From NCBI GenBank assembly GCA_964187785.1, contig OZ076415.1, positions 65,348,001 to 65,412,000 on the forward strand: a stretch of 64,000 nucleotides of DNA, in the 5' to 3' direction. Both the position numbers and the translations under genes were made by a program. Of the stretch, positions 7,629 through 25,923 are shown piece after piece. The stretch's first letter is position 1, and every line of letters starts with the position of its first letter. The DNA comes from Amphiscolops sp. MND2022 (taxonomy: Eukaryota). The notes below the pieces were generated by a model, which saw only the letters and a program-made list of their open reading frames with translations, searched no databases and had not been told where the DNA came from.

Positions 7629-7642
7629 GTATTGCTGACCAT

Positions 7643-9222
7643 TGTCGCACGCATGGGTAAAATTTGTTTATTAGTTTTAATCTGTCAAGTCCTTGTTTGC
7701 ATTTTACAAGGTACTATCTCGCGACGGTTCTGTTATTGATTTAACAAGTATAAGTCCCAACAAATAAATTTGCAACTTACTAATAAAGGGGGTGCCTTGC
7801 GCTTACGTGCGGACAAAAGAAATTGCGTGAGTCGTGCAAGGCAGTGGTTGTAAATGAGCTTCCTGTTTACTGAAAATGTATGGTGAATAAATATGTTTAA
7901 TTACGAATGAGTTGAGAATATTGAAAGTGGACAATTTCTGGACATAGCCATATCTCTTGCAATTGTTACAAATCTCAGATTAATAAAGATTACAACTTCA
8001 TTTTACAAGAAGAAGTAATATAACTTTTACAATTTATCATTTAAGAAAATGAAACTATTTACAAATAATGAGAATTTCCCTTTTTCTTCGGAAATCTTTT
8101 TCTCAAACAAAATTTACAAATCCGTACTATTTTAAACGGAAGAGTTTTGATTTAGATGTCTCTATTCAGTAGAAAGTTGAATAGCATTAAGACTTTTTCA
8201 TAATATAGCACTTTAAAATTTCAATCATCCCTTTTCTTATGTGAGTTTAAGTAACGTCAACCTTATAGAACTATTTAGTTCTAGTGAAAATAATCAAAGT
8301 TAAAGTTTTGTCAACCGCAGAATTGAAATCAGCGGAAAATAGCTAAATTTGAAGTTTTGTCAACCGCAGAATTGATATCGGCGGAAAATAGTTAAAGTCA
8401 AAGTTTTGTCAACCGCAGAATTGAAATCAGCGGAAAATAGCTAAAGTTGAAGTTTCAGAGAGAGTGAAATCTCTACTGAAAGGTCTAAATAGTCAGACTC
8501 ACCAAACCGGAGACGAAATTGAAGAGAAATTTCTAAGTTAGAAATTTCTTGTAAGGGAAGATTGGTTCTGGAAGTTGAAGTTAAATCAAGGATGAGTGGA
8601 GAAATTTTCTAAGATGCAAGGGTAGGATTAAAAGAGAATCATTGGATCTGAGTTATAAAGCAAGAAGTTTTGTTGAGTTAAATAGGAATCTGAATTGAAA
8701 TGTGAAGGCGAGAAATAGACTTTCTAAGTCTGAAGGGGAAGATAATAGTAAAGGGAGAGGAAAGGGGGTAAAGTAAGAAAGAAGTGCAGGGGTGAGGGGA
8801 GAGAAGTGGAAGAGAAGTGAAGAGAAACGAGAGCTTTTAAGTTTAAGCTCTGTCCGTTTCAATAAGTGTATGAATCTCCTCGCCTGCGTTGGCCGTATAT
8901 ATACAGCCAAGCATTTCTTATCGTGCGCTGCGTAGCAGGCATGGCTTATCTTTCACCAATCATAGTTGGTTTCATATTTCAAATATACGCGGTATAATAT
9001 AGAATTCTTCACTTGTGCAATTCCTTTCTCGTCACAGTACTTCATCATCATTATTACCATCGTTATGGCCGCCGCCTTATGGCCGCCATCTTCATCTACA
9101 ACTTTCTCCCCCATAAACAAACGTTAGTTCTAGTTCATGTTTGTTTCTTTATTTGTTAATTAAATATAAACTGCACTTTAGCACCTAATTATGTTTGTTA
9201 AAGCGTTAGTCATAACGCGACA
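7643..9222 (-). repeat. 3' LTR (1580 bp)
   Basis: Direct repeat of 23951-25530 with three substitutions spotted by eye; TG...CA termini. Confidence 0.97.
8303..8449. repeat. Three tandem 49-bp repeats inside the LTR (also 24611-24757)
   Basis: AAGTTTTGTCAACCGCAGAATTGA... starts at 8303, 8352 and 8401; each unit has a CCGC...GCGG inverted pair. Confidence 0.9.
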
Positions 9223-9234
9223 GCTCACCCCCCC
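9223..9234 (-). promoter_or_regulatory. Polypurine tract
   Basis: Minus strand GGGGGGGTGAGC immediately precedes the 3' LTR. Confidence 0.75.
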
Positions 9235-9259
9235 GGCAGGATGAAAGAAAATAAATGAG

Positions 9260-10197
9260 TTATGGGTCAGACTGAAAGAAGGGGGAGTTATGTAGCGCGA
9301 GTGACTGAGGGGAAGGTTCCTTAAATTTGATTCTAAATATTATAGAGTCATTGTTTAGGAATGCTTCTCTGAAGTTGCAAGTAACTTCGTATGAGGGATG
9401 AAGTCTTCTTTGAGGAGGTTCGGGTGCGTGTAGAGATTGTGAAGGGTATCTTCGTGGTTGTGGGGGTTGATTGGGAAAAGTGTGGACCACTTGTTGCCTT
9501 CGTCCTTCTGATCAAGTATTTCGACTTCTACTGTTTTATCAAAGGGCCATGTTTGTGGGTGAGTGAAGTCGCTATAATGAAGTTCACAGCTAATAGAAGA
9601 GTGGGTCCCACGGAAGATGTTTATCCCGTAAGGGAATATTCTGAAGGAAATTTTGCAGCCTGATAGGTATGTTGGGTAAATAGGGCTCGCGAAGCTGTTT
9701 TTGATGTTGTGAAAGGGATCGTCTGGAGAGGTCCTTGCTTTTCGGTAAAGTGTGGAGAAGGCGGAAACTTGCCAAGTGATAAAATCTTTACCGTTCGCTT
9801 CAATCTGGCTCGCTCTGCTAAGGAGGGAGCTTTGGTGTTTGATTGTCGCTCGCAAATCGAAGATAGTGACTTCCAATTGTTGACGTTTATCTCGTGCCTC
9901 TTCGATTGAGGTACATAGCAGTTTGATTCGGTTTTCTAACTTCTTTTGGGGTTGATTAATGTCCGTTAAAGGGAAGGACTTTCGAAGCGGTGTGCTTTTT
10001 GTTCCCTGGTTATAGGTACTAGTTGATTTCTCCCATTCACTAATCCACATATTTAGTCTTTCCACTCCTTCGAGGTTTGCATGTTCTTCTTGATCGTTTT
10101 CTTCAGGCATAGGTGGCCAGTCGGGGTTAGGGATCGGTAGGTAGGGTTTGTGTTTTGGGATGAAGGGGGTGGCATTTGGGTTTAATTTTTGGCTCAT
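9260..10197 (-). CDS. Accessory protein: PAM2 motif + coiled coil + TRAF-C/MATH domain (one frameshift near 9370-9390)
   Basis: N-terminus QKLNPNATPFIP. TRAF motifs ITWQVSAF, FASPIYPT, IFPYG and TWPF lie in ORF 9355-10197. The last TRAF strand FLNNDSIIFRIKF lies in the overlapping frame 9260-9490. Confidence 0.8.
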
Positions 10198-10775
10198 TGT
10201 GCAGATATGGATCTTAAGGGAACTGTCAGCCGCTGTCCCTTCAGTGCAGGGTTCTCAATAGTGTATTCTTGTCTTTTGTTGTCCCAAAAGACGATTTTCC
10301 AGGTTGAAAACTGTGGGAGTAGAGAATACTTTAGGTTTGCGTTAAACCTAGGTTTTTTAACGTATCTGGCTTTTCTAGTGAAGTATTCCCTTTTATGTTG
10401 CTTATGTAAGGGTGCTTCATCGGCTATCTCGTTGTTCCATTCATGATAGTGTTTTTGTGGTGTGGTTCTTCTGATGTCCTTTCCACCAAATCTAGGAGGA
10501 TGTTGTGTTGACGGGATTGGTGGTATGTCTCCTGTGAATGACAAAGGAAAGGGGAGTTGGTCGGATGGCGTTGGTGTGAAGGTTGGAGTTGGAGATTTTG
10601 AGGGTGATGATGGGACCGTTGAGTCAGGGGGGTCGGGAAGGAAGGTAATTGTTGTAGACGAGTCTGGTGTCAAAAAGTCTGAAGGAGATAGGGGTTCGAT
10701 TTCTAGGTCACTTTCTGGGATAGGATCCAGGGTATCGTCGTCCAGGCTTGGTAGGTCGAATAGTGGTTCTAGATT
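10194..10775 (-). CDS. Accessory protein exon (acidic/Pro-rich N-terminus, basic C-terminus), probably spliced
   Basis: The frame is open from 10775, directly after a TTAGTTTACTTTTAG acceptor-like site, with no ATG. The stop overlaps the next ATG (ATGA at 10197-10194). Confidence 0.6.
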   Translation of the reverse strand, partial: NLEPLFDLPSLDDDTLDPIPESDLEIEPLSPSDFLTPDSSTTITFLPDPPDSTVPSSPSKSPTPTFTPTPSDQLPFPLSFTGDIPPIPSTQHPPRFGGKDIRRTTPQKHYHEWNNEIADEAPLHKQHKREYFTRKARYVKKPRFNANLKYSLLPQFSTWKIVFWDNKRQEYTIENPALKGQRLTVPLRSISAQ

Positions 10776-10821
10776 CTAAAAGTAAACTAATGAATGAATG
10801 AACTTGAAAATGTTTTTGGCT

Positions 10822-12969
10822 TTATATTGGAGCTACGAAGCTCTGTACTGAGGGATAAAGTGATTCTTCCTTATTCTTCAGTGCTTGGAGTTCTACTTCT
10901 TTTCCATTATCTTCAGTTTTCGCGTTTTTATCTTCAACGCTATCCTCGTAAGGGGCCCGCGGGGTGAATACAGAAGTTAAAACTGAAGTAAAGAAAAGAT
11001 TGTACGAAGCACTGAGCAATGTTTTAGTGAAGCTCAGTGTATTACCTGTGAGGTGACGAAGTTCAAAGTATCGGAAGACGAGTACCGTGATATCTATTAC
11101 GAACTTAATGAAAAGAAAGGCGCCAAAATACGCGCCGCAGAGTTCTAGTACGTAAGATATACTTCCAAATGTTTCAAGGAACTGATTTTTGAAGTAATCG
11201 GGTGAGATCATGCCGTCAACATAAAAATCTGTACGGGGTGCATAATACGCGAAAGATTCAGGTCCACTATGGGCCATTGAGGGTGTGATGAGCTCTCGTG
11301 AGAACTTCTGGAGGGCGTTGCGAGACGCTGCGCTGATGAGGATGTTGTCCCAAAATTCTGAGAGTTGTTTAGGCGTATACATTCCCGCGTCTTGTGAACC
11401 AGGGAAGGATCTAGTAATCATTGGTTGTATGTCTTTGGGTCCGAAGATAGCAGGTCGGTCGCGATGTTCGGGTGAAGGAGTGAGGGTAAACCAGGAGTCT
11501 TTGTCTTCCATATCCAATTGAAAGAGGTTCTTAATGCGATCGCTGCAATTTTGGGCGTTCGCGTTAGGATAGGTCTGTCGGGTGATTGGGTCCACGAAGG
11601 CAACCACTCCTTTGTAGAAGATGGGTATGCGGTCGTAGCATCGGTTCATCGTGTGAAGAGGTGAGTGGGATTCCGGACAGTGGTAGAGCCAAGCGAGGCT
11701 GCCATCTGTGTTCAGGAACATTGAGCGATTTCCCGTGAGCATGTATCCGGCGAGGCGAGGATTTTCCATTGATAGCATCAAAATAGTAAGGATTTGAGTT
11801 CTTTCTTGTTCGCATTGTGCTTTGAGGAGCTGGATTTCTGAAGCTTCGAGGAGACGAGTGCTCTCAAAGAAGAGATAATCAAGCTTTGTCCCTTGGTGTA
11901 ACTCGTAATCCATGTTGAGGTAATGAGGTGTATTAGGGTTGGGGTCGCTCGGGCCTCGAAAGAGGTGGAGTCGGCCATTACCAGAACCATCTTCGGGTGA
12001 ATAATATTGTAGTTTAGATGTCTCTCCCATGGAGATGCCGAGTCGTCTGCCGGACGTCATGTCGAAGCCACCAAGTTGGATTGAAACGTACAGGGATTCG
12101 TAGTTGGTCGGGTATACATCGTCTGGTTTGTTGCAATACTTTTGTGGTCTGTTGTAGACTTCGAATAAAAATTTGGTAGTGGAGTCGTTGCCGCTTACAA
12201 TATAGTAGTTAGATCCGTGTTTGATCATGTTCACGATTTCTTTCCTATGTACTGCAAGCACGCAATTATCGGGCTCCGCCCATGTGTAGGCGTATGGGTC
12301 CAGTGACGTCGTTTCGCAACCTAGTTGTTCTAAGGGGCAGGGAAGGACCATCTGAAACGGAGTCAGGACTTTTCCATCTCGAGTTTTTACTGATAATTCA
12401 GCATCTTGGATGTGAGATTCGAATGTTTCTCTTTTGATCCAGCCACCTGTCTTGCATTCATTTCGGGTATCTGGGTCGCGTACACCGTCCCAACTCTTTC
12501 CGTATTTGGCGTTTCTCGTCTGTACTTGTTTCACTCCTTTCTTAAATTTGAGGGGTTGTCCATGGATTATGACTTCTTTGCCTTCACCCATTGCCTTGCA
12601 GGTTTCGGGTGACAGGGAAAGATCGCTGGTGATTCCGTCGTGTAGGATTGACATACTGGAGTGGTCGTGATAACCACAATGCCATTCTTCACTCTGATGT
12701 TTCACACGGCACATAGTGGCGTTGATAGTGCGGCGGAAATGTTTAGTGTATAACGTTACGCTCGCACGACTTACCTCTAAGTTTTCAGGTGCCACATTGC
12801 ATTGTTCAACTTGATTCAATGCGTAGAGTTTATTTTGGGTCATTTCGCCGCAGTCGAAATGAGTTACTCGCAGTTTTTTAGCAACGCTAGCGAGGTTTGG
12901 CGTTGGACGTTGTAATATCACAACGGGCGCGTAATGGGCGCATAAAAAGAGTAAGTAAAATAATTTCAT
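10822..12969 (-). CDS. env: Envelope glycoprotein, chuvirus-G-like (class III fusogen-like)
   Basis: N-terminal signal peptide; Cys pattern HFDCG...C...MCRV......HCGYHDHS; N-glycosylation sequons; C-terminal hydrophobic TM segment; TTTCAG acceptor-like site 2 nt before the ATG. Confidence 0.8.
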   Translation of the reverse strand: MKLFYLLFLCAHYAPVVILQRPTPNLASVAKKLRVTHFDCGEMTQNKLYALNQVEQCNVAPENLEVSRASVTLYTKHFRRTINATMCRVKHQSEEWHCGYHDHSSMSILHDGITSDLSLSPETCKAMGEGKEVIIHGQPLKFKKGVKQVQTRNAKYGKSWDGVRDPDTRNECKTGGWIKRETFESHIQDAELSVKTRDGKVLTPFQMVLPCPLEQLGCETTSLDPYAYTWAEPDNCVLAVHRKEIVNMIKHGSNYYIVSGNDSTTKFLFEVYNRPQKYCNKPDDVYPTNYESLYVSIQLGGFDMTSGRRLGISMGETSKLQYYSPEDGSGNGRLHLFRGPSDPNPNTPHYLNMDYELHQGTKLDYLFFESTRLLEASEIQLLKAQCEQERTQILTILMLSMENPRLAGYMLTGNRSMFLNTDGSLAWLYHCPESHSPLHTMNRCYDRIPIFYKGVVAFVDPITRQTYPNANAQNCSDRIKNLFQLDMEDKDSWFTLTPSPEHRDRPAIFGPKDIQPMITRSFPGSQDAGMYTPKQLSEFWDNILISAASRNALQKFSRELITPSMAHSGPESFAYYAPRTDFYVDGMISPDYFKNQFLETFGSISYVLELCGAYFGAFLFIKFVIDITVLVFRYFELRHLTGNTLSFTKTLLSASYNLFFTSVLTSVFTPRAPYEDSVEDKNAKTEDNGKEVELQALKNKEESLYPSVQSFVAPI

Positions 12970-13037
12970 TTCTGAAATTCTTCAGTCTTTGACAATCAAT
13001 CAGGAAAAATGTTTTTTATAGATATGTGGATCCACGG

Positions 13038-13457
13038 TAAGGCCGTAAAAAGGCAAGCCGTAATATCAAACCGGCAGCTTAGCTGGCACGACACTAAGCG
13101 GAGGTTAAAATTTTATAGTAGTAACCTCACTACTATTGGAAAGTGCCTTATAGAAAGATTGTTTTTTTTTGTTTAAAGTATAGGTTTCGGAGTAAGGCCG
13201 TAAAAAGGCAAGCCGTAATATCAAACCGGCAGCTTAGCTGGTACAACACTAAGCGGAGGTTAAAATTTTATAGTAGTAACCTCACTACTGTTCACACGTA
13301 CCTAAGAGAAGGAGTAGTTTATTTGTCTTTTAGTTTAGTTTAATGTTATGGATCCTGAAATAAGGCCGTAAAAAGGCAAGCCGTAATATCAAACCGGCAG
13401 CTTAGCTGGCACGACACTAAGCGGAGGTTAAAATTTTATAGTAGTAACCTCACTACT
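13038..13457 (-). repeat. Three 97-bp structured direct repeats separated by 58- and 71-nt unique spacers
   Basis: Copies at 13038-13134, 13193-13289 and 13361-13457. They differ only at two positions in copy 2, both in a predicted loop. Confidence 0.95.
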
Positions 13458-13517
13458 ATTCAAAGAGTGCCCGAAGAAAAATAGTAAAAGAAACTAACTT
13501 CAACCATCTGTGAAGGT

Positions 13518-13862
13518 TCAGCTGTAGTTATCACTGATTGATTTTAGACTGGGAGAGTGTTTGTTACGTCTCTGAGCGTCGAGGAAATCGATTAACTTGC
13601 TGAGGAGATGAAGGGTCAGAGGGTGAACGTGATCTAAGTAAGCGATCTCCCTGTAGTCGGTTAGCGCCTTCGCAAGATCTGCTGCTTCTGTCGAGTCTGT
13701 GGCGACAGGGATGAGCCAATGTCCCGTTTGATGTGGTCGGAGGCTGTGGAGTTCAATCTGAAGTGCGGGGGCGCTCTCTTTCCAGGCTATAGAGAGGATC
13801 TCAAGAAGTGTGTTTGTTTCCGGGTGACGCCAGAGGAATTTGAGTTGTATTTTAAACATCAT
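13518..13862 (-). CDS. Small accessory ORF (paralog family), likely ATG at 13862
   Basis: Overlaps the stop of the upstream ORF by 11 nt; shares an S-x-x-x-A-x-L-x3-L-x2-Y pattern with its neighbours. Confidence 0.6.
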   Translation of the reverse strand: MMFKIQLKFLWRHPETNTLLEILSIAWKESAPALQIELHSLRPHQTGHWLIPVATDSTEAADLAKALTDYREIAYLDHVHPLTLHLLSKLIDFLDAQRRNKHSPSLKSISDNYS

Positions 13863-14247
13863 AGGTCTCAACTAGGGTGTGAAGATATTTGATTCTAACC
13901 TCTTCTTCAAAGGGGTTAGTTACTAGGGTGATATCCATAAAATAAACCAAGTCGTCGAAAGCCTTGTCTTTAAGGACGGCGGGGTGTTGGAGTATGTATT
14001 GTTGGAACGATAGGAATAGGTAGGCGTATTCCTTGGACCCGAAGTGAATAGGGAAGAGGACTAGTGCTTCTTTGTCTTCTGGTGTGAGTATACGGACTTG
14101 TATCGCCGAGGTAGTGATCTCGTAAAAGATTGACTGTATTTCGTATTCACCCGTGAGTTGTATGGGTTTCCAAGGAACCGGAGGTTGAAATTGAGTGTGG
14201 AAGTAGTACTTATTTCCTCGAAATACGGCAACTGCGGGAGAGGACAT
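13852..14247 (-). CDS. Small accessory ORF, 131 aa (paralog family)
   Basis: Its ATG overlaps the upstream TAA (TAATG at 14249-14245). Confidence 0.65.
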   Translation of the reverse strand: MSSPAVAVFRGNKYYFHTQFQPPVPWKPIQLTGEYEIQSIFYEITTSAIQVRILTPEDKEALVLFPIHFGSKEYAYLFLSFQQYILQHPAVLKDKAFDDLVYFMDITLVTNPFEEEVRIKYLHTLVETYDV

Positions 14248-14468
14248 TAAAGGACTGACTTGGCTCTTGTGAAGACTTCGGTAGGTGTGTTATTATATAG
14301 TAGACTCTCCAGTAGTGGGTAGATAGGTGATGCTGGCACACACGTGTAGGTTTCACTCTCTTCTTCTGCGATTGCGTAGGCTTGTATGATTATGTTCTGT
14401 GTTGAGGGTTCCTTCTGAATATCAGTTATCTGGGAAAGTCGGTTGTCAATTTTGAATATTATGATCAT
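14247..14468 (-). CDS. Small accessory ORF, 73 aa
   Basis: TGATG overlap at its start and TAATG overlap at its end. Confidence 0.55.
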   Translation of the reverse strand: MIIIFKIDNRLSQITDIQKEPSTQNIIIQAYAIAEEESETYTCVPASPIYPLLESLLYNNTPTEVFTRAKSVL

Positions 14469-14635
14469 CAGTGAGCTGTTATGCCTTGTGGCGTGTGTGC
14501 ATCAAACATAGCAAATCTGAGAATGGAATCATCAGTTATTTCATTGCGTTTTTGGGGGTATTTGTAGAGGAGAGAGGATTACGACTTCATGAGTCGTCGT
14601 AGTAAACTAGACAAATGTCCGGGTAGGATATTATA

Positions 14636-14727
14636 TTTTATATCTGATGACTAAGTTGAATAGTGATACATATATGGTTGACTTCAATCAATAATTATAA
14701 ACACTTTGCATGACTTTAAATAAATCA
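14636..14727. promoter_or_regulatory. Candidate internal bidirectional promoter
   Basis: TATAAAA on minus at 14642-14636, TATAAA on plus at 14696-14701 and Inr-like TCA at 14725-14727; divergent ORFs on both sides. Confidence 0.35.
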
Positions 14728-14742
14728 AATTTGTATTTAGGG

Positions 14743-15405
14743 ATGAGCAACAACAACAACAACAACTATAGCGACTATTACGAAGAATCCTCGACCGATG
14801 AGGAGACTACTGCTCCAGGGTCTGTGTCGGGCACTGCCGCTACCTCTTTGCCGCCACAATCGTCGTCGTCAGCTGGGCCGTCCTCGTCGAGCGGAGCGCG
14901 CACCAGTTCTTCTGCTCCCGCGTCATCAGGTTCTCAGGCAGGGACCTCTGGGGGTGGGTCTTTTGTGGCGTTTGTGGCCCCGAGGACTAGTGGCCCTTTT
15001 CCGCAAGCTCCCTCTACCATCTCGCAGGGTGTTTTGGAGAGCCCGGGGGATCAAAGTTTTATGGGTTTATTTACCCATAGGGATATCGACCGCCTAGAAA
15101 ACTGGGCTTCATTAACTAGTTCCCTTCAGGGTACCCCCGGGTTTTCTGTTTCTGGGCCTCCCGGTCCAAATGCTCTAACTAGTTTCTTGCGGGCTAACTG
15201 GGGGGCCCGTTGGGAGCAGACTCTCCTGTCCTCTCTCGGCGAAATAGTCGTCTTCCAGCTGCGAGCCTACATAAGTGGCTACTCGCAGCTGACTAGTTTT
15301 GAGAGGGGTCAGTGGACCCGCCTCTATTCATTGTGGACAATGGGGGAGCGGGCGGCTCAGCTGCGGCGACTTGCAGAGAAGGGAGGTTTCCTGGAGATTG
15401 AGTAG
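14743..15405 (+). CDS. Antisense accessory gene (Ser/Gly-rich N-terminus, helical C-terminus)
   Basis: Long ORF opposite the element strand in a region with no minus-strand ORF; TATA upstream and AATAAA at 15532-15537. An alternative ATG is at 14710. Confidence 0.65.
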   Translation: MSNNNNNNYSDYYEESSTDEETTAPGSVSGTAATSLPPQSSSSAGPSSSSGARTSSSAPASSGSQAGTSGGGSFVAFVAPRTSGPFPQAPSTISQGVLESPGDQSFMGLFTHRDIDRLENWASLTSSLQGTPGFSVSGPPGPNALTSFLRANWGARWEQTLLSSLGEIVVFQLRAYISGYSQLTSFERGQWTRLYSLWTMGERAAQLRRLAEKGGFLEIE

Positions 15406-15572
15406 GCATTATTGCCTCTCATCTCCAGGAAATACTTTATTTTTCTACGCTTTTGTGTTTGCTGCTTTTCGTAAGTTCCTTCTCGGGGTTGCACAAATTG
15501 TATAGATAAAAAGTCTAATAATAATAATAATAATAAAGATAATATTTTTTTCGAATAAGCGGTAATATCCGG

Positions 15573-15998: not shown

Positions 15999-18900
15999 GA
16001 AGTATGGACTGTCGTGCTGGTTGATTGGGTTGTGCTCGCTGATAACGTGGATTTCTCTCTATTTGGCGGGCAACAGCCTTTCGTAACTCTTGCAAGGGAG
16101 TCGTTGACTTGGTAGACGATGCCGGGGTGTTAGTTGGGGGTGCTGGAGTTGGTTGACGTTGAGTTAACGTCAGGATAGGGGTTGCTGCGTTTTGAGGATG
16201 TGATGTCGAAGGCTGATCGGGAGTCTTGGGAGTTGACAACAACTGATTTTCTGGAGAGATGATACCAGAGTCTGTGCTCTGGGGGGTTTGCGTTCTTTTG
16301 CGGGCAAGTATTTGGTTTTGTTGATTCCGTACTGGCAATATGGAGAGGTCTCCGAGTTTTTGTGGTTCTGAAACATTAAGTTGTTCAATTCTTCCTTTGA
16401 CAAGATTGTTATAAAAATCCGTGTCTCCACGGTGGGGAGTAGTGTATTCTTCGATAAGAGGGGGGAGTGTTTCTTCTTTAGGAAAGTATTCTATTAGATG
16501 GTTCCTATGTACAGTTCGGAGATTCTCGGGGTTTTGATCTTCCATTATTTGGTAAGTTGTATTTGTAATTCGTTTGGTAACCGTAAAGGGTCCTAGTCGC
16601 AGTTGTTGGAGTTTTTGGCTTTTGGAGAGGTCTTTTCGATGGTTCTCTAGCAGAACCTTTTGTCCAATGTTGAGGTGGTTCCCAAGTTTAAATCTGTTCC
16701 TGTAGGCGTGTGATTGAGCTGTTTGTTTTCTGCACTTTTCATATGTGGATGAGTAGACCTTTTTGAAGGCTGTTTCTCGTTCCAATAAGCTTTGTGATAG
16801 TTGTGGTCGTAATAGTCCATTTAGTAGTTCGTTTTTGACTTGGTTTTCGCTATGGCAATGAGGAGGTAATCCTTGACAGAATTGTGATTTGCAGTTCTTG
16901 TTTTTGTTCCTGTAGAGTCCCAGCTTCAGACTCATAGGTATCTGTGGTTTATTGCAAAACACTATCTCGTAGGGGGTCTTTCCAGTCGTGTAGTTGACGC
17001 TTGTGTTGTGGGCGAATGCAAATTTGGCAGCTAGTTGGGCCCAGTTGTTTCCTGATTCGTTTAGGAAGTTTCTCCAGTATCTTGCAATGTGTTGATTTTG
17101 AGTTTCTACTTTGCCATTTGTCCAGGGTGAGTGTGCGGTTCTTGGTCGAAGTGTAATGCCAAACTCTTTAGTCCAATTGACGAATTCAGTGTTCACGAAA
17201 GCTGTTCCTCTATCATGTACGATAGATTGAGGGATGCCATAGTGCATAATCCATTTTTCCATCGCATTGATTGTAGATTGTGCTCCTGTGTCTCTGACTG
17301 GGTATGCCATCAGGTAACGTGAGAAGGCGTCGATGATCAGAAGGCAATGTGAATTTCCACGACTGGGAGGATTGAGTGGTCCTTTGTGATCAATGTGGAT
17401 GGTTCTGAATACTTGAGTTTCGGTTTCGCAGTCTTCCAGTGGGACTTCGTTGTTTCTCCGTTGTTTGGATTTGTTAGATTGGCAGCTAACACAATCTTGT
17501 GTGAGGGCACAGATCCAGTTGTGCATCCCTGGCCAGTAGTAAAATCTCTTAGCATTGAGGAAGGTCTTTTCTGCTCCCATGTGGCCGCCGAGGTCGTTGT
17601 AATGTCCCATACGAAAGCAAGCTAAAAATAGAGAGAGAGGTAGACAGATTCTCAGATTCTCGTCTGTTGGGTCATCAGTTGGCTCGTTATAACAAAGGAG
17701 GTTTCCTTGGCCTTCTATAGATAATCTGTCGAATTCCTGAAAGTAACGCATGAGGCCTTTTGAGTGTTGTAACTCTGGTGATTTTGGTTCGGGTTTGTTT
17801 CCTGTTCTTACCCATTGTCGGACCACGCTGAGTACCGGGTCATTTATTTGTTCTTGTAAGATCGTTGTAACGTTTAGTTCTACTTCTTTGGATAGTTTAT
17901 CAAGTTGTCTGACAAGTTCCTGTGTTGGTGTCTTTTGTTTTTCAGTTGAATTTGTAGGTAGATCGAGGTGTTCTATTGCCTTCGCGTTTTTGGGAAGACT
18001 TGGGTTACGTGCGATGGGATCTTCTGTGTTGAGCTCGTAGTTGGTCTCGTTTATTTCTTGACTCTGATTGTCTGTGAGGGCTTCGTCATCCGTATCACTG
18101 TTGATGGAGCTGTAAGTGTTTTGTGATAAATCCGAAGTGCTATCCCGTGTTCCTGACCTGATTCTTAGTTCTTCGAATTTTCCAAGTTCTCTTCCAGCGT
18201 CGAGGCAACTCTGTGCTGACTCTACTTTCGGCAGGTTAGGTTCTTCGTAGATAGAGTTAACTGTGAAGTTATTCCCATCATTTTGGAGATGAAGTACTTT
18301 CCGTTCTTTTCCCTTCTCGTACAAGATGGGGTAAAAGTCGTTCTTGGATGTCTCTTCATTTTCTTCGTGTTTGATTTTGTAGTGTACTTGGGTTCCATGT
18401 TCGTCGAAAAAGTGTATGTCAGTTGGGATGACTTTGTGACTGAGTTGATGTTTCTTGTGTTCCTCGATGGAGACGTTTCGACTGAGTATGTCAGGGAAGG
18501 CTAGGTTGCTTCCTGGAGTCCAAATTATCTTGAGATTCGGGAATTTAGATATAATTACTTGGTACCTGAAAAAACGGGGTGAAATTTGTCCCTTTCTTCC
18601 CCAGAGATAAAGAATCGGCTTGTGATCGCAGTATAGGTAGATGGGGAAGGGAGATCCGATGATGTAGTGTTCATACGTCTGAAGAGCTGAGACTATGCCA
18701 CATAATTCTCTGTGTAGTGTGGACATCTTTTGTTCTTCCTTTGCGAAAACTCTTGAGTTGAAGGAAATGATCCGTTTCCCTTCTGGGAATTGTTGGATGA
18801 GGATACATCCTGTCCCAACGTTTGACGAGTCGACGTGTATGTGAAAGGGGTATTTTGTCGAGGGTATTGCGAGCACTGTGTCTTCGGTAATTCTTTTCTT

Positions 18901-21477
18901 TATTTCCTGGAAAAGGTCTTCGTGTTCTTGGTTCCAGCAAAAATTTGTATCTTTCTTGGTGAGTTCGTAAAAAGGTCGACTATCGACATGAAGATTCTTG
19001 ATGTAGCAGCTATAGAAGCCCAAAGCTCCTAAGAAGCTTTTCACTTCGGTTTTGGTCTTTGGTGATTTGAGATTGTGTAGGTCTTTTACTCGTTTTGCGA
19101 CAGGTTGTATTCCTTCGGCTGCTATCACGTGTCCCAAAAACTTGACTTTCCTTAAGAAGAAGAGTGTCTTATCTGGTGCTGCCTTGAGTCCGGCTTTCCG
19201 CAGTAAGTTATGGTATTCTTGAATTACCGTGAACATTTCTTGTTTGTTTTTGGCTTGCATCAACGTGTCGTCGATGTATGTAATTGCCTGTTTCCTTTTG
19301 ATGAGGGGTTCGAAGTGGATAGTCATCATTCTGCTAAAGAAGCTTGGTAATCCCTTGAGTCCATAGAATCCCCTGGTGAAGGTGTATTGTTTTCCGCCAA
19401 TGATGAAGCTGGTGAGTTTTTGCGTGGGCTCGTCTAATGGGACTTGGTGAAATGCACAGGAGAGATCACTTACTGAGAAGATGTTTCCATTTATTAGTGT
19501 CATTATGGTTTGGATCGGTTCTAAGGGCCAGGAATAATTTGTTAGATCTGTCACCGAGTTTAGATATCTCGCATCTATGATCAGCTTGACATAGTCATGT
19601 TTTGGTTGTAGTATAATAGGATTCACAAATAAGGATCCCATTTCTTCATCGTCGCCCATTTCTCTGATGATATCAGCGTCTTTGAGTTGTGTGAGTAGCT
19701 TCTCTAGCTTTTCTCGTAGGTGAAGTGGTACTTTGCTGGGTCTCTGTCTCTTTAGAATTGCTCCAGGTTCTAGTTTAATGTTAAATTTTTGTCTGGTTTT
19801 CCCTACGTCAAATTTGTGTTGGGAGTATACATCTCTTGCGTCCATTAGTAAGTCTATTAGGAGAACCAGTTCTTCGTCTGTGAGGTCTGAGTAGCGAAAG
19901 TCGAATTCTTTAATGTATCGCACTGCTTCCTTATTTTGATACTGAAGGTAGTACTCGATCAGTCGTTCGTTGTCTTCTTTTGGCCTGAAGATTTTAAATT
20001 GCTCATCGCAGGGTGGTTGACAGGACTTTGCGTCGCTTGTGAAGTCTGTCTCCAGCTCTCTATGTTTGAGATGAAATTGCTCGGAAAATTGTTGTATCTC
20101 ATCTTCTAGTACGTATTCGGGGTCTCCTCTTGTAGTCATGGCATAGACATCTAGTTCGTTTCTTGTATAAATTCGGAGTTGTATTTCTGAGTATGCAAAT
20201 ACGTCTTGAATGAGTTGAGTGACGTCTTGCCATTGGAAGTCTTCTAGCTCTGAGGCTTCCCGTAGCATGGATATAGTTTTGATGCCGCTCATTTTGGCGT
20301 GTGCTTTTAGAGTTTCGAGAGATTGAACTAGTAATTGTGGGTCAATCTTGTCTTTTGATTTTGCTTTCGTAATCAGAACATATATAAATCGTTTCAGAGT
20401 TTCGTCCCAGTAGGGTATGGTTTCTCCTTTCTGTGGTTTCTGTTTTGCGCATGTATCCTTAAGTGAAGGTATTTTCGTTAGGATTTCTTTTGAGAAGCCT
20501 TTGGCTGGCTTTAGGTCGGCCGGGACGAAGATGATGATAGGGTCTGGTCTGCTGAGTATTGTTTTCGAGTTTCCTCCTTCTATTCTGAGGCAATCGTTCA
20601 TATCTTGTGAAGGAATGGTAGAGTGTAATAGGAAACAGTCGTTGTATTCTTCGTTTTCGTTTAGGATAGCATATGCGAGTTCTGTCGGGTTTCTAATTTG
20701 GTATTTCGGAATTTCTTGGTCTAATACGTCAAGCATTGAGTATCCGATAGTTCCTTTTACTAAGGTGATTGTATGGTTTTTGTTGTTTTCCATGACGATT
20801 GGTAAAGTCTTCTCAAATCGTGTGCAGAGGACATTTATGAAGTTAAGTCCAGTAGAAACTGCCTTCCTGTTCGGTAGGAACGTAGATCCAGGAGGAAATG
20901 AGTTATTAGTGTTTTCTGGTGCGAATTTGTAACATCTTGTCGTCTTTGGTTCGATATACATTGAGTGAGGAATTCTGACTGAGAGAATTTGTGATATATA
21001 GGGGTAACATTTGTTGAGTTGTAGGCTACCATAGCAGAAAGTATTTATAAGTCTTTTGAGTTCTATGCCAGGAAGATCAAAGTGTATTTTGTTAACTTGT
21101 TCTTGGCAGAAATTCATTCCAAGGAGGTTTTGGGTTTTCATCTCTGTTATCCAGACTGTTAATGGGAAGTTATGTTGTCCATCGGAATCGTAGTAGAGTT
21201 TGAGGGTGATGTATCCCATCATAGGGATGATCTGCCCAGAGTAGTTCCGTGTTGTGTTATTGCTTCTACTAAGTTCTAGGTCTTGTTGAAACTGGCAAAG
21301 TTCTCTAAAGGTCCTGTAGTTGATGATTGAAGATGTTGCCCCAGTGTCTAGTAGAAATTCGATTTCTAAGCCACTATCTTTTTGTGAGTCTCCGGCAGCA
21401 AAATAATAAAGATTAAGACTAAATTTTAGAGGGGCACTGCTGCTATTTCTATTTTTCGGAGACCTTAGTAGTTTAAA
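15967..21477 (-). CDS. pol: Pol polyprotein: protease, macrodomain, reverse transcriptase, RNase H, integrase
   Basis: The frame is open upstream of the track ATG (21222) and includes LLDTGA at 21348-21337. It has RT YIDD, RNase H VDSS/DHKP, integrase HHCC (H.....GH...CVSC), the D,D(35)E-type core IHID/HDRG/KVETQN and a GPF motif. Confidence 0.97.
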   Translation of the reverse strand, partial: FKLLRSPKNRNSSSAPLKFSLNLYYFAAGDSQKDSGLEIEFLLDTGATSSIINYRTFRELCQFQQDLELSRSNNTTRNYSGQIIPMMGYITLKLYYDSDGQHNFPLTVWITEMKTQNLLGMNFCQEQVNKIHFDLPGIELKRLINTFCYGSLQLNKCYPYISQILSVRIPHSMYIEPKTTRCYKFAPENTNNSFPPGSTFLPNRKAVSTGLNFINVLCTRFEKTLPIVMENNKNHTITLVKGTIGYSMLDVLDQEIPKYQIRNPTELAYAILNENEEYNDCFLLHSTIPSQDMNDCLRIEGGNSKTILSRPDPIIIFVPADLKPAKGFSKEILTKIPSLKDTCAKQKPQKGETIPYWDETLKRFIYVLITKAKSKDKIDPQLLVQSLETLKAHAKMSGIKTISMLREASELEDFQWQDVTQLIQDVFAYSEIQLRIYTRNELDVYAMTTRGDPEYVLEDEIQQFSEQFHLKHRELETDFTSDAKSCQPPCDEQFKIFRPKEDNERLIEYYLQYQNKEAVRYIKEFDFRYSDLTDEELVLLIDLLMDARDVYSQHKFDVGKTRQKFNIKLEPGAILKRQRPSKVPLHLREKLEKLLTQLKDADIIREMGDDEEMGSLFVNPIILQPKHDYVKLIIDARYLNSVTDLTNYSWPLEPIQTIMTLINGNIFSVSDLSCAFHQVPLDEPTQKLTSFIIGGKQYTFTRGFYGLKGLPSFFSRMMTIHFEPLIKRKQAITYIDDTLMQAKNKQEMFTVIQEYHNLLRKAGLKAAPDKTLFFLRKVKFLGHVIAAEGIQPVAKRVKDLHNLKSPKTKTEVKSFLGALGFYSCYIKNLHVDSRPFYELTKKDTNFCWNQEHEDLFQEIKKRITEDTVLAIPSTKYPFHIHVDSSNVGTGCILIQQFPEGKRIISFNSRVFAKEEQKMSTLHRELCGIVSALQTYEHYIIGSPFPIYLYCDHKPILYLWGRKGQISPRFFRYQVIISKFPNLKIIWTPGSNLAFPDILSRNVSIEEHKKHQLSHKVIPTDIHFFDEHGTQVHYKIKHEENEETSKNDFYPILYEKGKERKVLHLQNDGNNFTVNSIYEEPNLPKVESAQSCLDAGRELGKFEELRIRSGTRDSTSDLSQNTYSSINSDTDDEALTDNQSQEINETNYELNTEDPIARNPSLPKNAKAIEHLDLPTNSTEKQKTPTQELVRQLDKLSKEVELNVTTILQEQINDPVLSVVRQWVRTGNKPEPKSPELQHSKGLMRYFQEFDRLSIEGQGNLLCYNEPTDDPTDENLRICLPLSLFLACFRMGHYNDLGGHMGAEKTFLNAKRFYYWPGMHNWICALTQDCVSCQSNKSKQRRNNEVPLEDCETETQVFRTIHIDHKGPLNPPSRGNSHCLLIIDAFSRYLMAYPVRDTGAQSTINAMEKWIMHYGIPQSIVHDRGTAFVNTEFVNWTKEFGITLRPRTAHSPWTNGKVETQNQHIARYWRNFLNESGNNWAQLAAKFAFAHNTSVNYTTGKTPYEIVFCNKPQIPMSLKLGLYRNKNKNCKSQFCQGLPPHCHSENQVKNELLNGLLRPQLSQSLLERETAFKKVYSSTYEKCRKQTAQSHAYRNRFKLGNHLNIGQKVLLENHRKDLSKSQKLQQLRLGPFTVTKRITNTTYQIMEDQNPENLRTVHRNHLIEYFPKEETLPPLIEEYTTPHRGDTDFYNNLVKGRIEQLNVSEPQKLGDLSILPVRNQQNQILARKRTQTPQSTDSGIISPENQLLSTPKTPDQPSTSHPQNAATPILTLTQRQPTPAPPTNTPASSTKSTTPLQELRKAVARQIERNPRYQRAQPNQPARQSILRERTRIGYKE
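21387..21477 (-). promoter_or_regulatory. -1 ribosomal frameshift signal (UUUAAAC + downstream stem)
   Basis: The slippery heptamer T TTA AAC lies in the gag frame at 21477-21471 and pol is in the -1 frame. A 6-nt spacer is followed by GGTCTCCG pairing with CGGAGACT and GCAGCA pairing with TGCTGC. Confidence 0.8.
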
Positions 21478-22919
21478 GGGCGGAAATCGGCAATAGAGTT
21501 CACCGAGTAGTCGGTTTCTAAGAACTGTACTGTGTTGGATCTTCCTATGTCATTAGTTTTTGGGAATCTTTGCTCGTAAGATTGAGTTGGAGTGTTGGGT
21601 CTTTCGTTTCTGTCTAGTGGTCTTTGAAAAACTGAGTTATTTCTTGGTGGAAGAAGTTGTATGTTGCGATTAAAGGAGCTAGACTGGTCTCTGTTGAAGT
21701 TGAACGGAGATCTTGCTCTTTGGGGTCCGGGGGAAACACTTCTGGAGTTGTTAGAATTGTTTAGGAAGGGTTTTCTCCCTTCTTGTGAAAATCTTTGGTT
21801 ACCAGGATTGACTCTTGTATTCGTAGGTCGGCGTTCTGGGTTGAAATTTTTTCTTTGTGGTCTATCGTATTGATTCCAGGCAGGGTTTGACTGCATAGCT
21901 CCAGCCAGTGCTAGTTGATGTGCCACAGCCATATGTTTTCTGATTTCTGAATCTGGTAATCTTGGTTGAAATCTAGAGCCATGTTCAGGTCCAGTTCTTT
22001 TGTTGTAGTCGTTGGTGAATGTTATTCTTCTTTCTGGGTTAGCTTCGTTTTGAACCTTCTTCACTTCTTCATCTCTCATCTTCTTTCTGCACCAGTTAGG
22101 TGTGTGCCCATTTGTTCGGCAGTAGCCACAGAATCGTGTGGCCATTCTTCGACCTGTAGCATTAGGGTCTACAGTTTTCTCTACTGCGTTGATTGTGTTA
22201 TTCATCTGTTCTTTGATTTGTAGTTTGATTCCCTTCAAGTCGTCTCGCATTTCTTGTATGAGTGGGTCTGAATGTGATTCTCCGCCAGTTAGGGCGGTAG
22301 TTACCGTGTAGGAGAGGTCTTTGTTTATTACAGCTTGGGAGAATTGTTCCCAGGTTGCATTCGGGTGATCCATTAAATATTCGTGTGCCTTTTCTCTTAG
22401 TTTTGGAGGTCTTAGGCCTCTCAGTGAGTAGTCGATGCACCTTTGTCTTCTTTGTCGGTCTTGTGCTGCTCTTTCTGCGTTTCTGTCGTTTTGTGCGACG
22501 CCGGCAAGATCATCTGGCCAGCCTTTCCCCACAACAATTTTGATTCTGTGTAGAAAATTCTTTATCTCTTCTCCATCTCTTCTGGTGACATGTTCTGCTT
22601 CCATTCTGTGTCTGAATTTATTTCGGCCATCTGCGAATCTTGTGATGAACCTTTCTCTGATTTCTTGCCAGGTGTTAGCGTCTGTGATACTTGTCTCGAA
22701 CCACTCCGCTGCTGGTCCTCTTAGTAGTGTAGCAAAGTAGGATTTTCTCCTGAAGTTGTAGTCGTCAAGTGCTGCTCCGTTTGCTGGGGTATCACCATGA
22801 GAGAAACGGAACTTCTTTTCAATTAGCTGTATAAATTGTTCAGGATCTTGATCTGGGTCTGTTCCCGTGAATTGGTCTCTGCCGAGGTCTGGATAAGCCA
22901 AGTAATTTTGCGCAGCCAT
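21465..22919 (-). CDS. gag: Gag (capsid + CCHC zinc knuckle)
   Basis: Ty3-like LRGPAAEWF capsid motif; CGYCRTNGHTPNWC = CX2CX4HX4C. Confidence 0.95.
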   Translation of the reverse strand: MAAQNYLAYPDLGRDQFTGTDPDQDPEQFIQLIEKKFRFSHGDTPANGAALDDYNFRRKSYFATLLRGPAAEWFETSITDANTWQEIRERFITRFADGRNKFRHRMEAEHVTRRDGEEIKNFLHRIKIVVGKGWPDDLAGVAQNDRNAERAAQDRQRRQRCIDYSLRGLRPPKLREKAHEYLMDHPNATWEQFSQAVINKDLSYTVTTALTGGESHSDPLIQEMRDDLKGIKLQIKEQMNNTINAVEKTVDPNATGRRMATRFCGYCRTNGHTPNWCRKKMRDEEVKKVQNEANPERRITFTNDYNKRTGPEHGSRFQPRLPDSEIRKHMAVAHQLALAGAMQSNPAWNQYDRPQRKNFNPERRPTNTRVNPGNQRFSQEGRKPFLNNSNNSRSVSPGPQRARSPFNFNRDQSSSFNRNIQLLPPRNNSVFQRPLDRNERPNTPTQSYEQRFPKTNDIGRSNTVQFLETDYSVNSIADFRPLNY

Positions 22920-23929
22920 TGTGAGCTATTGAGATTATAAAGGATAGAAGATGAAGCAAAGAACAATAAGCCAAAGACTCTATGAGGTATGATACTCTTG
23001 GCTTTTGAGAATAACAGCAAAGAGTTAAAGTAAAAATTGTTTGTACTATGATTCTAATAGTGATAATTATTAGACAGGTCTGACAAATCATAAAATCCTT
23101 AATACGCTGCTAGCAAAAATGAAAATAACACTTCTCGGTCGAAGTTAGGCTCATTTCCTATATTTCGTACTCTGATTCCACAGTTTAGGGGATACTTACA
23201 AATCCCAGTAGTGTTGAGATTATCGTAAAAAGGGTAGTTCGGGGTATACCAATCCTCCGAGTTAACCCAAAGAAAACCTATGAAGAGTACAGTCAGTCCA
23301 CTAGGTCTTTCATCCGCTCGTTGAACCTTTCTTTAACTTTAGGAAAATAACTAGTTCACAGAGGGAGTTACTCTCGTCTTTAGGATTAAGTGCGTGGGGC
23401 CCAGATCACTATCATGCAATCACTTGGGTACTATCACTAGGATACTAGGTTTCCCACTCGGAATGCTACATAGGTTCCAAGATACCCACTGGGCTCACGG
23501 CCTTCAAACAGCCTCCGAGGAGACCTAGGCGGGCTTTTACTTAATTTGTGTCCGTCCGGACTAGAGTGAATTTCCCAACTGTGCCTTTAAATAAAGCGTA
23601 TAGAGTCAGTTTCATTCTTGTTTAGGACTGATGGTAATCTCATAGTATTTTCGTAAAGGTAAATCATTTCTAACAAATGGTTTTGGGGATTGAAAGAAAG
23701 AGAGTAGTGCATAAACTCTTCCCAAAGCTGTTAGGCTGGAGAGATTCTGTTAGAGTATTTACTAGCAGTTTTACGATTTATATAGATTAGAGAAGCCACA
23801 TATTGAGGCAGTAGGAGAAAGAAGAAAATTAGAAGTAATGTTAAGAGAAATAAGTAAGTAACCCTTACTTCTGAGAGTAGGGATTCTAACAGATAGCTCA
23901 TTTACTTCTCTATTACAAGAGAAAAAGTA

Positions 23930-23947
23930 GCCTCACTGGTCGCACCA
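23930..23947 (-). promoter_or_regulatory. Primer-binding site (18 nt)
   Basis: TGGTGCGACCAGTGAGGC begins after a 3-nt spacer following the 5' LTR; its complement ends in CCA like a tRNA 3' end. Confidence 0.85.
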
Positions 23948-23950
23948 GTT

Positions 23951-25530
23951 TGTCGCACGCATGGGTAAAATTTGTTTATTAGTTTTAATCTGTCAAGTCC
24001 TTGTTTGCATTTTACAAGGTACTATCTCGCGACGGTTCTGTTATTGATTTAACAAGTATAAGTCCCAACAAATAAATTTGCAACTTACTGATAAAGGGGG
24101 TGCCTTGCGCTTACGTGCGGACAAAAGAAATTGCGTGAGTCGTGCAAGGCAGTGGTTGTAAATGAGCTTCCTGTTTACTGAAAATGTATGGTGAATAAAT
24201 ATGTTTAATTACGAATGAGTTGAGAATATTGAAAGTGGACAATTTCTGGACATAGCCATATCTCTTGCAATTGTTACAAATCTCAGATTAATAAATATTA
24301 CAACTTCATTTTACAAGAAGAAGTAATATAACTTTTACAATTTATCATTTAAGAAAATGAAACTATTTACAAATAATGAGAATTTCCCTTTTTCTTCGGA
24401 AATCTTTTTCTCAAACAAAATTTACAAATCCGTACTATTTTAAACGGAAGAGTTTTGATTTAGATGTCTCTATTCAGTAGAAAGTTGAATAGCATTAAGA
24501 CTTTTTCATAATATAGCACTTTAAAATTTCAATCATCCCTTTTCTTATGTGAGTTTAAGTAACGTCAACCTTATAGAACTATTTAGTTCTAGTGAAAATA
24601 ATCAAAGTTAAAGTTTTGTCAACCGCAGAATTGAAATCAGCGGAAAATAGCTAAATTTGAAGTTTTGTCAACCGCAGAATTGATATCGGCGGAAAATAGT
24701 TAAAGTCAAAGTTTTGTCAACCGCAGAATTGAAATCAGCGGAAAATAGCTAAAGTTGAAGTTTCAGAGAGAGTGAAATCTCTACTGAAAGGTCTAAATAG
24801 TCAGACTCACCAAACCGGAGACGAAATTGAAGAGAAATTTCTAAGTTAGAAATTTCTTGTAAGGGAAGATTGGTTCTGGAAGTTGAAGTTAAATCAAGGA
24901 TGAGTGGAGAAATTTTTTAAGATGCAAGGGTAGGATTAAAAGAGAATCATTGGATCTGAGTTATAAAGCAAGAAGTTTTGTTGAGTTAAATAGGAATCTG
25001 AATTGAAATGTGAAGGCGAGAAATAGACTTTCTAAGTCTGAAGGGGAAGATAATAGTAAAGGGAGAGGAAAGGGGGTAAAGTAAGAAAGAAGTGCAGGGG
25101 TGAGGGGAGAGAAGTGGAAGAGAAGTGAAGAGAAACGAGAGCTTTTAAGTTTAAGCTCTGTCCGTTTCAATAAGTGTATGAATCTCCTCGCCTGCGTTGG
25201 CCGTATATATACAGCCAAGCATTTCTTATCGTGCGCTGCGTAGCAGGCATGGCTTATCTTTCACCAATCATAGTTGGTTTCATATTTCAAATATACGCGG
25301 TATAATATAGAATTCTTCACTTGTGCAATTCCTTTCTCGTCACAGTACTTCATCATCATTATTACCATCGTTATGGCCGCCGCCTTATGGCCGCCATCTT
25401 CATCTACAACTTTCTCCCCCATAAACAAACGTTAGTTCTAGTTCATGTTTGTTTCTTTATTTGTTAATTAAATATAAACTGCACTTTAGCACCTAATTAT
25501 GTTTGTTAAAGCGTTAGTCATAACGCGACA
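23951..25530 (-). repeat. 5' LTR (1580 bp)
   Basis: Copy of 7643-9222; candidate TATATATA at about 25205-25212. Confidence 0.97.
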
Positions 25531-25923
25531 CCATTTAATAATGTAACAAAAACTTCTCTTTGTTTAACCGTTAGACTATGACGTTATACATGGCGTTATT
25601 TTAAGTACGTAATTACAAATTATAACCATAAACAGTTATTATCCAGCTTGGACTTATATTTACCAGGTCACGACGTGCCCTGTGGAACCTGGGGGGTATA
25701 CACAATCATGCAATTTGTTCCAACACTACAGACATTTTCGAATAGGTTTTATAATGATCAGTAATCCTGATATGAAATTATTACAAAGTCAAAAGAACGA
25801 AAATGGTCAGCACTACATTTACAGTCACATGAGGTAGTGAAAATCACTGATCGAGAAAATATTGACCTATTTCCTGAAGAATTACGAGTTCAAATTCTGG
25901 TCTTTCGAGAGGCCTAGCAGCCG

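Follow-up and report, generated by a model that had tools for sequence, protein, structure and literature searches.

Accessory gene kits and regulated expression from several mRNAs are usually seen as marks of the complex retroviruses of vertebrates. Does a retrotransposon of the Ty3/Gypsy lineage in Amphiscolops sp. MND2022 follow a similar plan? The question is raised by a 17.9-kb long terminal repeat (LTR) element located on the minus strand at positions 7643–25530 of a 64,000-nt stretch of contig OZ076415.1 (positions 65,348,001–65,412,000 of the forward strand); this whole stretch is referred to below as the window. A preliminary description of the locus had presented the element as a giant, enveloped and possibly infectious, undescribed system with host-modulating genes. 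In our opinion, it is probably a young multicopy Ty3/Gypsy element with an env gene of the glycoprotein B (gB) type and eight selected accessory genes, whose expression would follow a programme resembling that of complex retroviruses, with several mRNAs, coupled gene cassettes and a predicted double-pseudoknot RNA marking the genome for export or packaging. At the DNA level, its gene organisation is likely similar to that of a complex retrovirus.

Besides gag, pol and env, eight accessory open reading frames (ORFs) were recognised, namely ORF0, A, the antisense ORF, B, C, D, E and a TRAF-like ORF. With env they make nine genes beyond gag-pol. The figure of about nine given in the preliminary description therefore holds when env and the 56-aa ORF0 are counted, and the additional ORFs, of which it counted at least seven, correspond to A, the antisense ORF, B, C, D, E and the TRAF-like ORF, all present and conserved.

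Copies and Sister Families

The 6.7-kb accessory block recurs in the genome: among the best 23 of 495 candidates scored, at least 13 are full-length matches at 99–100% identity, the window copy included; that is, there are multiple copies more than 98% identical. All nine sister copies that were fetched have 4-bp target site duplications (TSDs) and LTRs with an identity of 99.0–100% (100% in two of them), and 71 of the 72 frames of env and seven accessory ORFs are open in these nine sisters. Loss of the block from sister copies, which the preliminary description had raised as a case against its own proposal, was looked for and the block was found to be kept.

Among the best 144 of 28,791 candidates, the reverse transcriptase (RT) relatives in the genome span 74–100% identity and represent a radiation. 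Six sister elements measure 17.8–19.6 kb and have related accessory blocks. All nine genes beyond gag-pol are kept in family E (85% RT identity), while the far families (74–78% RT identity) keep env, ORF E, the TRAF-like ORF, a homologue of ORF B at the same position and two or three ORFs of a small-domain family described below. The gene order and the junctions between genes are conserved across six families.

Several fragments and variants related to these families were observed. At 137–817 (plus strand) the window contains a MATH-domain ORF matching the TRAF-like ORF of a far sister family (locus L033), and a small-domain match lies just outside the window (C7:65343600). The ORF at 137–817 was considered as a host donor gene and rejected, since it is the TRAF ORF of that far family; accordingly, the left edge of the window would hold the 3′ end of another such element. 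In one family E locus (L031:2329–2856) an additional ORF, of 176 aa, is situated between the antisense ORF and ORF B; by eye it resembles a 182-aa ORF of the short derivatives considered below. In another sister copy (L037, C12:51149400–51159300) the end of pol and the block of A, antisense ORF, B, C and D are tandemly duplicated.

Selection on the Accessory ORFs

The ratios of nonsynonymous to synonymous divergence (dN/dS) against subfamily A were 0.07 for gag, 0.06 for pol and 0.04 for env, and those of the accessory ORFs were 0.07 (A), 0.15 (antisense), 0.03 (B), 0.08 (C), 0.09 (D), 0.05 (E) and 0.16 (TRAF-like), with upper bootstrap bounds of at most 0.27 and synonymous divergence (dS) of 0.5–2.9. 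Comparisons with saturated dS (family E) were excluded, as were those with the very close V subfamily, in which D (0.88) and the TRAF-like ORF (0.34) have few changes and intervals spanning 1. A nucleotide-only test for an excess of changes at third codon positions gave P ≤ 8e-4 for all eight ORFs tested in two comparisons and P ≥ 0.18 for three non-coding controls. Judged by these substitution patterns, seven accessory ORFs (A, antisense, B, C, D, E and TRAF-like) are clearly kept by purifying selection. The eighth, ORF0, is probably kept by selection too; it is 56 aa long in all four near-family copies compared, and its third-position excess reached P = 0.004 against family E and 0.054 and 0.095 against subfamilies A and B. 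Thus the neutral evolution that the preliminary description had allowed for is not what these ORFs display.

Divergence is distributed as a mosaic. The dS of the TRAF-like ORF is about 1.9 and that of env 0.66, and the antisense ORF has a dS of 1.3 against a subfamily for which dS is 0.01–0.14 elsewhere; cassettes have therefore been swapped by recombination. Positive selection on the TRAF-like ORF was considered and rejected, as its high divergence accompanies this high dS and fits cassette exchange.

These data bear directly on the view that the element is an ordinary gB-type errantivirus with captured DNA, whose additional ORFs would be mere passengers or frames open by chance. Capture of ORFs downstream of pol or env is common among LTR elements (PMC6431247), and two ORFs of the leader failed the third-position test. 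This view is contradicted by purifying selection measured alongside non-coding controls, by gene order and junctions conserved across six families and by cassette-like swapping that leaves the frames open, and we regard it as very improbable.

Structure of the Element and Its gag-pol Region

The 5′ LTR (23951–25530) and the 3′ LTR (7643–9222), both on the minus strand, are 1580 bp long and differ at three sites, and the target duplication CCAT is found at both flanks (7639–7642 and 25531–25534), in agreement with the 17.9-kb element with near-identical LTRs described previously. The LTR termini are TGTCGC...GCGACA. The 5′ LTR carries a 49-nt tandem repeat at 24604–24763 and a TATA-like box at about 25211, a putative promoter; tandem repeats of about 47–56 nt were also noticed in the LTRs of several families. 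The primer binding site (PBS; 23931–23948, minus strand) follows the 5′ LTR and is common to all six families examined; it has 337 matches in the genome compared with one for a control sequence, and a tRNA search for its primer gave no match. A polypurine tract (9223–9236, minus strand) adjoins the 3′ LTR as a G-run. Hence the hallmarks of Ty3/Gypsy elements are present: direct LTRs with TG...CA ends, PBS, polypurine tract and a short TSD. The internal region between the LTRs is 14.7 kb long, so that the word "giant", used in the literature for an internal region above 20 kb (PMC6431247), does not suit this element.

The gag gene (21465–22919, minus strand) encodes 484 aa with a CCHC knuckle and a PF03732 match, and pol (15967–21546, minus strand) encodes 1859 aa in the −1 frame relative to gag. 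These frames and that of env are open, as had been reported. A slippery heptamer T TTA AAC lies in the gag/pol overlap just before the gag stop (21471–21477, minus strand) and was found at all 12 gag/pol junctions from six families; Gag-Pol would be produced by −1 frameshifting at this site. The domains of pol are in the order protease, RT, RNase H, integrase, with the DTG and YIDD motifs and the acidic residues of RNase H and integrase present. Ty3 Gag-Pol is the best solved-structure match of the RT (E = 2e-55, versus 2e-22 for foamy virus and 2e-17 for murine leukemia virus-type RT), and this match would place the RT with Ty3/Gypsy rather than with Bel/Pao, Copia or Retroviridae. Between the protease and RT domains pol contains a TARG1/OARD1-like macrodomain (20164–20481, minus strand; E = 1e-11), which retains the LITK lysine.

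ORF fragments surround the insertion at 7357–7638 and 25930–26797. A weak Phage_int_SAM_1 match at 25930–26259 (E = 2e-4) suggests that the insertion target was an element of the tyrosine-recombinase type.

env and Expression Signals

The env gene (10822–12969, minus strand) is open and encodes 715 aa matching PF24664, the Monjiviricetes fusion glycoprotein (E = 4.5e-33). It is thus of the chuvirus/gB type, with a hydrophobic N-terminus, 16 cysteines, four sequons and a transmembrane (TM) segment at about aa 603–637. Its profile matched none of the PDB sequences, and no furin site was found in it. As judged by dN/dS, env is constrained as strongly as pol. It is solely the intact and selected env that speaks for the terms "enveloped" and "infectious". 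Transfer of particles from cell to cell and into the germline would be the task of Env, possibly aided by ORF0.

The accessory genes are closely packed. The B stop and C start overlap as TAATG in 10 of 12 copies and are adjacent (TAA-ATG) in the other two; the end of C overlaps D by 11 nt in the window and by 8–11 nt among copies; the E stop and TRAF start overlap as ATGA in seven of eight near-family copies; and ORF A starts 7–11 nt past the pol stop among copies. In caliciviruses, influenza B and the SART1 retrotransposon, it is overlaps of the UAAUG and AUGA kinds that drive reinitiation (PMC10275272). By analogy, C, D, the TRAF-like ORF and A may be translated by termination-reinitiation in the element. 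Reinitiation at a termination upstream ribosome-binding site calls for a stop and a start no more than about 20 nt apart and for a helper motif, TGGGA, located upstream and complementary to 18S rRNA. It is found 89–95 nt before the E-TRAF junction in six of seven near copies, yet there it falls on invariant Trp-Asp codons.

Candidate splice signals were examined as well. In the near families ORF E lacks an ATG, and its phase-0 start follows a conserved acceptor-like site, TTTAG; spliced-leader trans-splicing was considered as a possible source of its ATG. Of the splice-acceptor-like sites of the preliminary description, YAG sites proved conserved ahead of gag, ORF E and the antisense ORF, whereas the one immediately preceding env did not. 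A donor-like G|GTGAGT at 24810 in the 5′ LTR, a putative splice donor, is kept in three subfamilies, as is a second donor-like site at 23199, and a phase-0 donor-like site occurs at env codon 65 (12774) in three of four. The antisense ORF is flanked by a TATA-like box (14696) and AATAAA (15532). We propose that subgenomic mRNAs, formed by splicing from the LTR donor or from internal promoters, would open the B-C-D, env and E-TRAF cassettes and that the antisense ORF would be a transcription unit of its own, with a predicted transcript of about 14725–15550.

The same signals can be read as those of a gene-rich intracellular retrotransposon, whose accessory genes serve replication or host evasion in germ or stem cells, whose env serves membrane targeting or cell-cell transfer without free infectious virions, and which uses internal promoters and reinitiation rather than regulated splicing. 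In agreement with this, the antisense ORF has its own flanking signals, stop/start coupling removes the need for most splicing, env has no furin site, and MDG1 elements express small ORFs (sORFs) without splicing (PMC11952523). What makes this explanation rather unlikely in our view is that ORF E, without an ATG in the near families and starting in phase 0 after the conserved TTTAG, needs an upstream exon, that the 24810 donor is conserved in three subfamilies and that env is under constraint equal to that of pol.

A Structured RNA Repeat and Short Derivatives

The structured RNA repeats mentioned in the preliminary description were recovered as three units of about 120 nt (13031–13153, 13186–13308 and 13354–13477; together 13031–13477, minus strand) between D and env. 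Between the window and family E the units share 90% identity, compared with 65–70% for coding DNA. Their predicted structure comprises two pseudoknots and three hairpins, with 96% of cells paired. Ten of its 31 pairs change on both sides, a value as high being reached in 0 of 500 shuffles and slid controls giving 0–3 pairs; the structure was drawn from the alignment on which the pairs were counted and related sequences inflate such counts, which weakens the argument. G-U variants favour the sense strand. A comparison with Rfam gave no match at E ≤ 1. In far families a different tandem repeat of about 51 nt, distinct from the pseudoknot repeat, was seen upstream of the B homologue (L032 at about 3500–4030; L034 at 3435–3800).

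The hairpin core of the repeat occurs 268 times in the genome. All 12 short loci studied proved to be LTR derivatives that lack gag, retain no more than a scrap of pol and keep the PBS; they are about 6–8 kb long where both ends were seen, and five of them have TSDs and LTRs 99.7–100% identical. All 12 keep one to four hairpin cores, with units mostly 93–99% identical to those of the window, while their env scraps are 72–74% identical. Ten of the 12 had been picked for a repeat near the PBS, which counts against using this proportion, and the two picked by a TRAF scrap only also hold the repeat. Retention of the repeat in derivatives lacking gag and pol and having diverged env scraps fits a cis-acting mobilisation signal better than an element for env translation, and such a signal is its likely role, as far as can be deduced from its distribution.

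Nevertheless, the position of the repeat 60–500 nt upstream of the env ATG (about 20 nt in family E) would also suit an element controlling env translation or RNA stability, acting like an internal ribosome entry site (IRES) or blocking exonucleases, with the remainder of our reading unchanged. Pseudoknot-rich folds are typical of IRES-like and exonuclease-blocking elements. In the derivatives, however, the repeat is retained, expanded to four units and refreshed in sequence although env is deleted and broken, and so we consider this function improbable and prefer the mobilisation signal.

The derivative family itself, which is young and non-autonomous (L081–L092, e.g., C4:27591300–27600300) shares the PBS and termini of the autonomous families and has LTRs swapped with them. 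Seven of the 12 short derivatives contain an intact 182-aa ORF with a weak MATH_2 match (E = 0.008).

Accessory Proteins

ORF0 (23731–23901, minus strand) lies right after the PBS, upstream of gag, and its 56-aa product has one predicted TM helix followed by a basic tail; a PF01445 SH match (E = 0.017) is below the cut-off. Other leader ORFs, at 23091–22840 (83 aa) and 23332–23099 and two shorter ones, were rejected as genes, as they have no third-position excess (P = 0.23–0.95) and are missing in family E.

ORF A (15573–15959, minus strand, 128 aa), which begins 7 nt past the pol stop, ORF C (13852–14247, minus strand, 131 aa) and ORF D (13518–13862, minus strand, 114 aa) are likely paralogues of one small domain. 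A hidden Markov model (HMM) built from small ORFs of far families only was compared with 142 ORFs and matched D of the window with E = 1e-6, A with E = 0.002 and C weakly; the first nine matches outside the training family were all orthologues of A, C or D. D belongs to the family, A is a likely member of it, with a small beta-meander/helix domain, and C is a probable member, with weak support. The family forms 77 clusters at 50% identity, and 0 of the 53 clusters scanned reach the Pfam cut-off. One large cluster has a best match of only 47% identity in this genome, which suggests that the lineage exists elsewhere too. A distant member (P0261) was noticed in another abundant repeat with more than 100 matches (L113, L114; C1:47175987, C9:3692319). 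The model of D (predicted local distance difference test score of 82) has four strands followed by helices; Foldseek gave no match at E ≤ 0.001, and only weak PUR/Whirly-type rows were obtained, with an uninformative best Z of 5.4. An Atlas search gave no usable match for D or for the C-terminus of E.

ORF B (14247–14468, minus strand, 73 aa) is under the strongest constraint among the accessory ORFs. The antisense ORF (14710–15405, plus strand, conserved start at 14743) encodes 220–231 aa with an acidic, Ser-rich N-terminus and a conserved C-terminal domain. ORF E (10194–10775, minus strand, 193 codons, without its own ATG) has 85 homologues; its N-terminus is acidic, Pro-rich and disordered and is followed by a basic helix and, at the C-terminus, by a conserved domain of three strands. 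It may be a nuclear regulator of transcription or RNA export, with a role like that of CERV, Rev or Tas.

The TRAF-like ORF (9355–10197, minus strand) contains a PAM2-like N-terminus, a coiled coil and a TRAF-C/MATH domain whose best PDB matches are TRAF5 and TRAF4, whereas RING and zinc fingers are lacking. In the window copy a frameshift lies close to the 3′ end of this ORF, which encodes 280 aa from the ATG compared with 312 aa in sister L002; the open frame has 299 codons in the window and 331 in all nine sisters. All 24 matches of the PAM2 pattern in the loci, which are redundant, fall at the N-terminus of this ORF. Lacking RING and zinc fingers, the protein could interfere with TRAF signalling as a dominant-negative form or a decoy and perhaps be tethered by the PAM2-like motif to poly(A)-binding protein (PABP), while the macrodomain might counter or bind ADP-ribose. 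The host-modulating role proposed in the preliminary description would thus rest on the identity of the TRAF-C and TARG1-like domains.

A number of observations weigh against parts of the interpretation that we favour. In far families the E-TRAF overlap gives way to gaps of 7–37 nt; TGGGA is absent before the B-C junction of the window; and the YAG site adjoining the env ATG is not conserved. Far families C, D and F do not have the RNA repeat. In the macrodomain the GCGLD motif reads ASELE, which makes catalysis doubtful. The PAM2 score is 16.3 against a 20-bit cut-off, and far families lack the motif. No mutual alignment above 20% probability was obtained with the profiles of A, C and D, and the HMM score of C is weak. 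Finally, Pfam contains no family matching A, B, C, D, E or the antisense ORF, and D lacks a clear match in fold.

Other Features of the Window

A Maverick/Polinton-like element with terminal inverted repeats lies at 50331–62938 and contains an rve integrase (54239–55285) and a Pox_A32 ATPase (52819–53553); a frame of 1411 codons at 58017–62252 looks by eye like a protein-primed polymerase and had no Pfam match at E = 0.001. Nested tandem arrays occupy 34400–49600, with units of about 1.5–2.0 kb followed by about 20 units of 405–507 bp, up to 100% identical. A MITE-like pair of 103-nt inverted repeats, 98% complementary and spaced by 457 nt, is located at 28452–29114.

Relation to Known Elements and Significance

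Is such an element new? The designation "undescribed system" goes too far. A gB-type env is widespread in Ty3/gypsy elements, as shown by the HSV/gB-type "ancient errantiviruses" (Chary and Hayashi, eLife 2026, PMC13524379). These multicopy, young elements resemble ours in the Ty3/gypsy pol, the gag-pol-env order and the chuvirus/gB-like env with signal and TM segments (PMC13524379). They differ in having pol and env within 1 kb, in search regions of at most 10 kb; the main prefilter of that survey allows a pol-env distance of at most 1 kb, and the 3.0-kb gap of our element fails it (PMC13524379). The text of this paper contains neither "accessory" nor "TRAF", and its element table lacks the PBS 10-mer (PMC13524379). 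A POL of the ancient clade and a "mini" domain following RNase H are further marks of these viruses. Beyond the ancient errantivirus plan, the element described here possesses eight accessory ORFs, a macrodomain and coupled cassettes.

Burro/GYPSM1 of planarians is likewise a large Gypsy element with a mononegavirus-like env and a MATH_TRAF_C domain, for which interference with host apoptosis and ubiquitination has been proposed (PMC6431247). In Dugesia tigrina this domain forms a separate accessory ORF (PMC6431247). However, Burro exceeds 30 kb, with an internal region of up to 25 kb, and encodes a polyprotein of about 4900 aa that holds most of its domains, with env in frame between gag and pol (PMC6431247); in the element studied here the genes are individual small ORFs, placed before and after a free env that follows pol. 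Burro also carries BIR, BCL2 and ankyrin (PMC6431247), for which no Pfam match was obtained in any ORF scanned.

Small accessory ORFs are also known from the Drosophila MDG1 group, whose sORF1 and sORF2 include a protein with a TM helix followed by a basic patch, as in ORF0; these elements are without env and have two sORFs (PMC11952523). Proteins of the sORF2 and FAST-like kind are fusogenic and have a short ectodomain, a TM helix, a basic patch and often N-myristoylation; ORF0 has the helix and basic tail and lacks the MG start and the MGxxxS/T motif, and the likeness is one of features. In Caenorhabditis elegans, the LTR retrotransposon Cer1 has a spliced accessory protein, CERV, needed for export of genomic RNA; it is its only accessory protein (PMC10309623). 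By analogy, CERV may offer a functional precedent for ORF E and a cis-acting RNA element. Bdelloid LTR elements also have extra ORFs downstream of pol but only a single ORF3 (env, GDSL esterase or DEDDy exonuclease), without a multi-gene block (PMC5408684).

Features common to the element and complex retroviruses (foamy viruses and lentiviruses) are several accessory genes flanking env, a donor-like site in the LTR, a candidate regulator, a predicted structured RNA acting in cis and an antisense ORF; fish foamy-like endogenous retroviruses reach up to 17 kb (PMC6431247). In contrast to them, its RT is closest to Ty3, its env is of class III type rather than class I, and stop/start coupling would be used. 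The resemblance is probably convergent, and the element belongs neither to Retroviridae nor to Burro. Its parts have precedents in gB-env errantiviruses, Burro, MDG1 sORFs and Cer1 CERV; the organisation as a whole was not found in the literature searched, whose scope excluded most subscription papers, Repbase, Dfam and GyDB. Not part of the preliminary description are the macrodomain in pol, the non-autonomous derivatives, the predicted coupling in translation and the view that A, C and D are likely paralogues.

A bolder formulation is possible, though we put it forward tentatively: such elements may be "complex errantiviruses", infectious Ty3/Gypsy endogenous viruses in which the complex-retrovirus plan evolved independently. 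They would possess a Rev/Tas-like regulator, a new double-pseudoknot RNA used in packaging or export and parasitised by defective, satellite-like elements, polycistronic cassettes of the stop-restart kind, a new small protein domain in expansion and counter-defence genes that can be swapped (a TRAF decoy tethered to PABP and a protein binding ADP-ribose).

If our reading is true, the existence of eight selected accessory genes in an active Gypsy lineage would mean that this plan evolved twice, and surveys capping the pol-env gap at 1 kb would miss such elements. The locus offers a protein domain family of 77 clusters, an RNA motif outside Rfam with a natural deletion series mapping its role, and putative eukaryotic stop-restart cassettes. 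The fast-swapping TRAF and antisense cassettes, in turn, would point to host defences against retroelements in an invertebrate-type genome.

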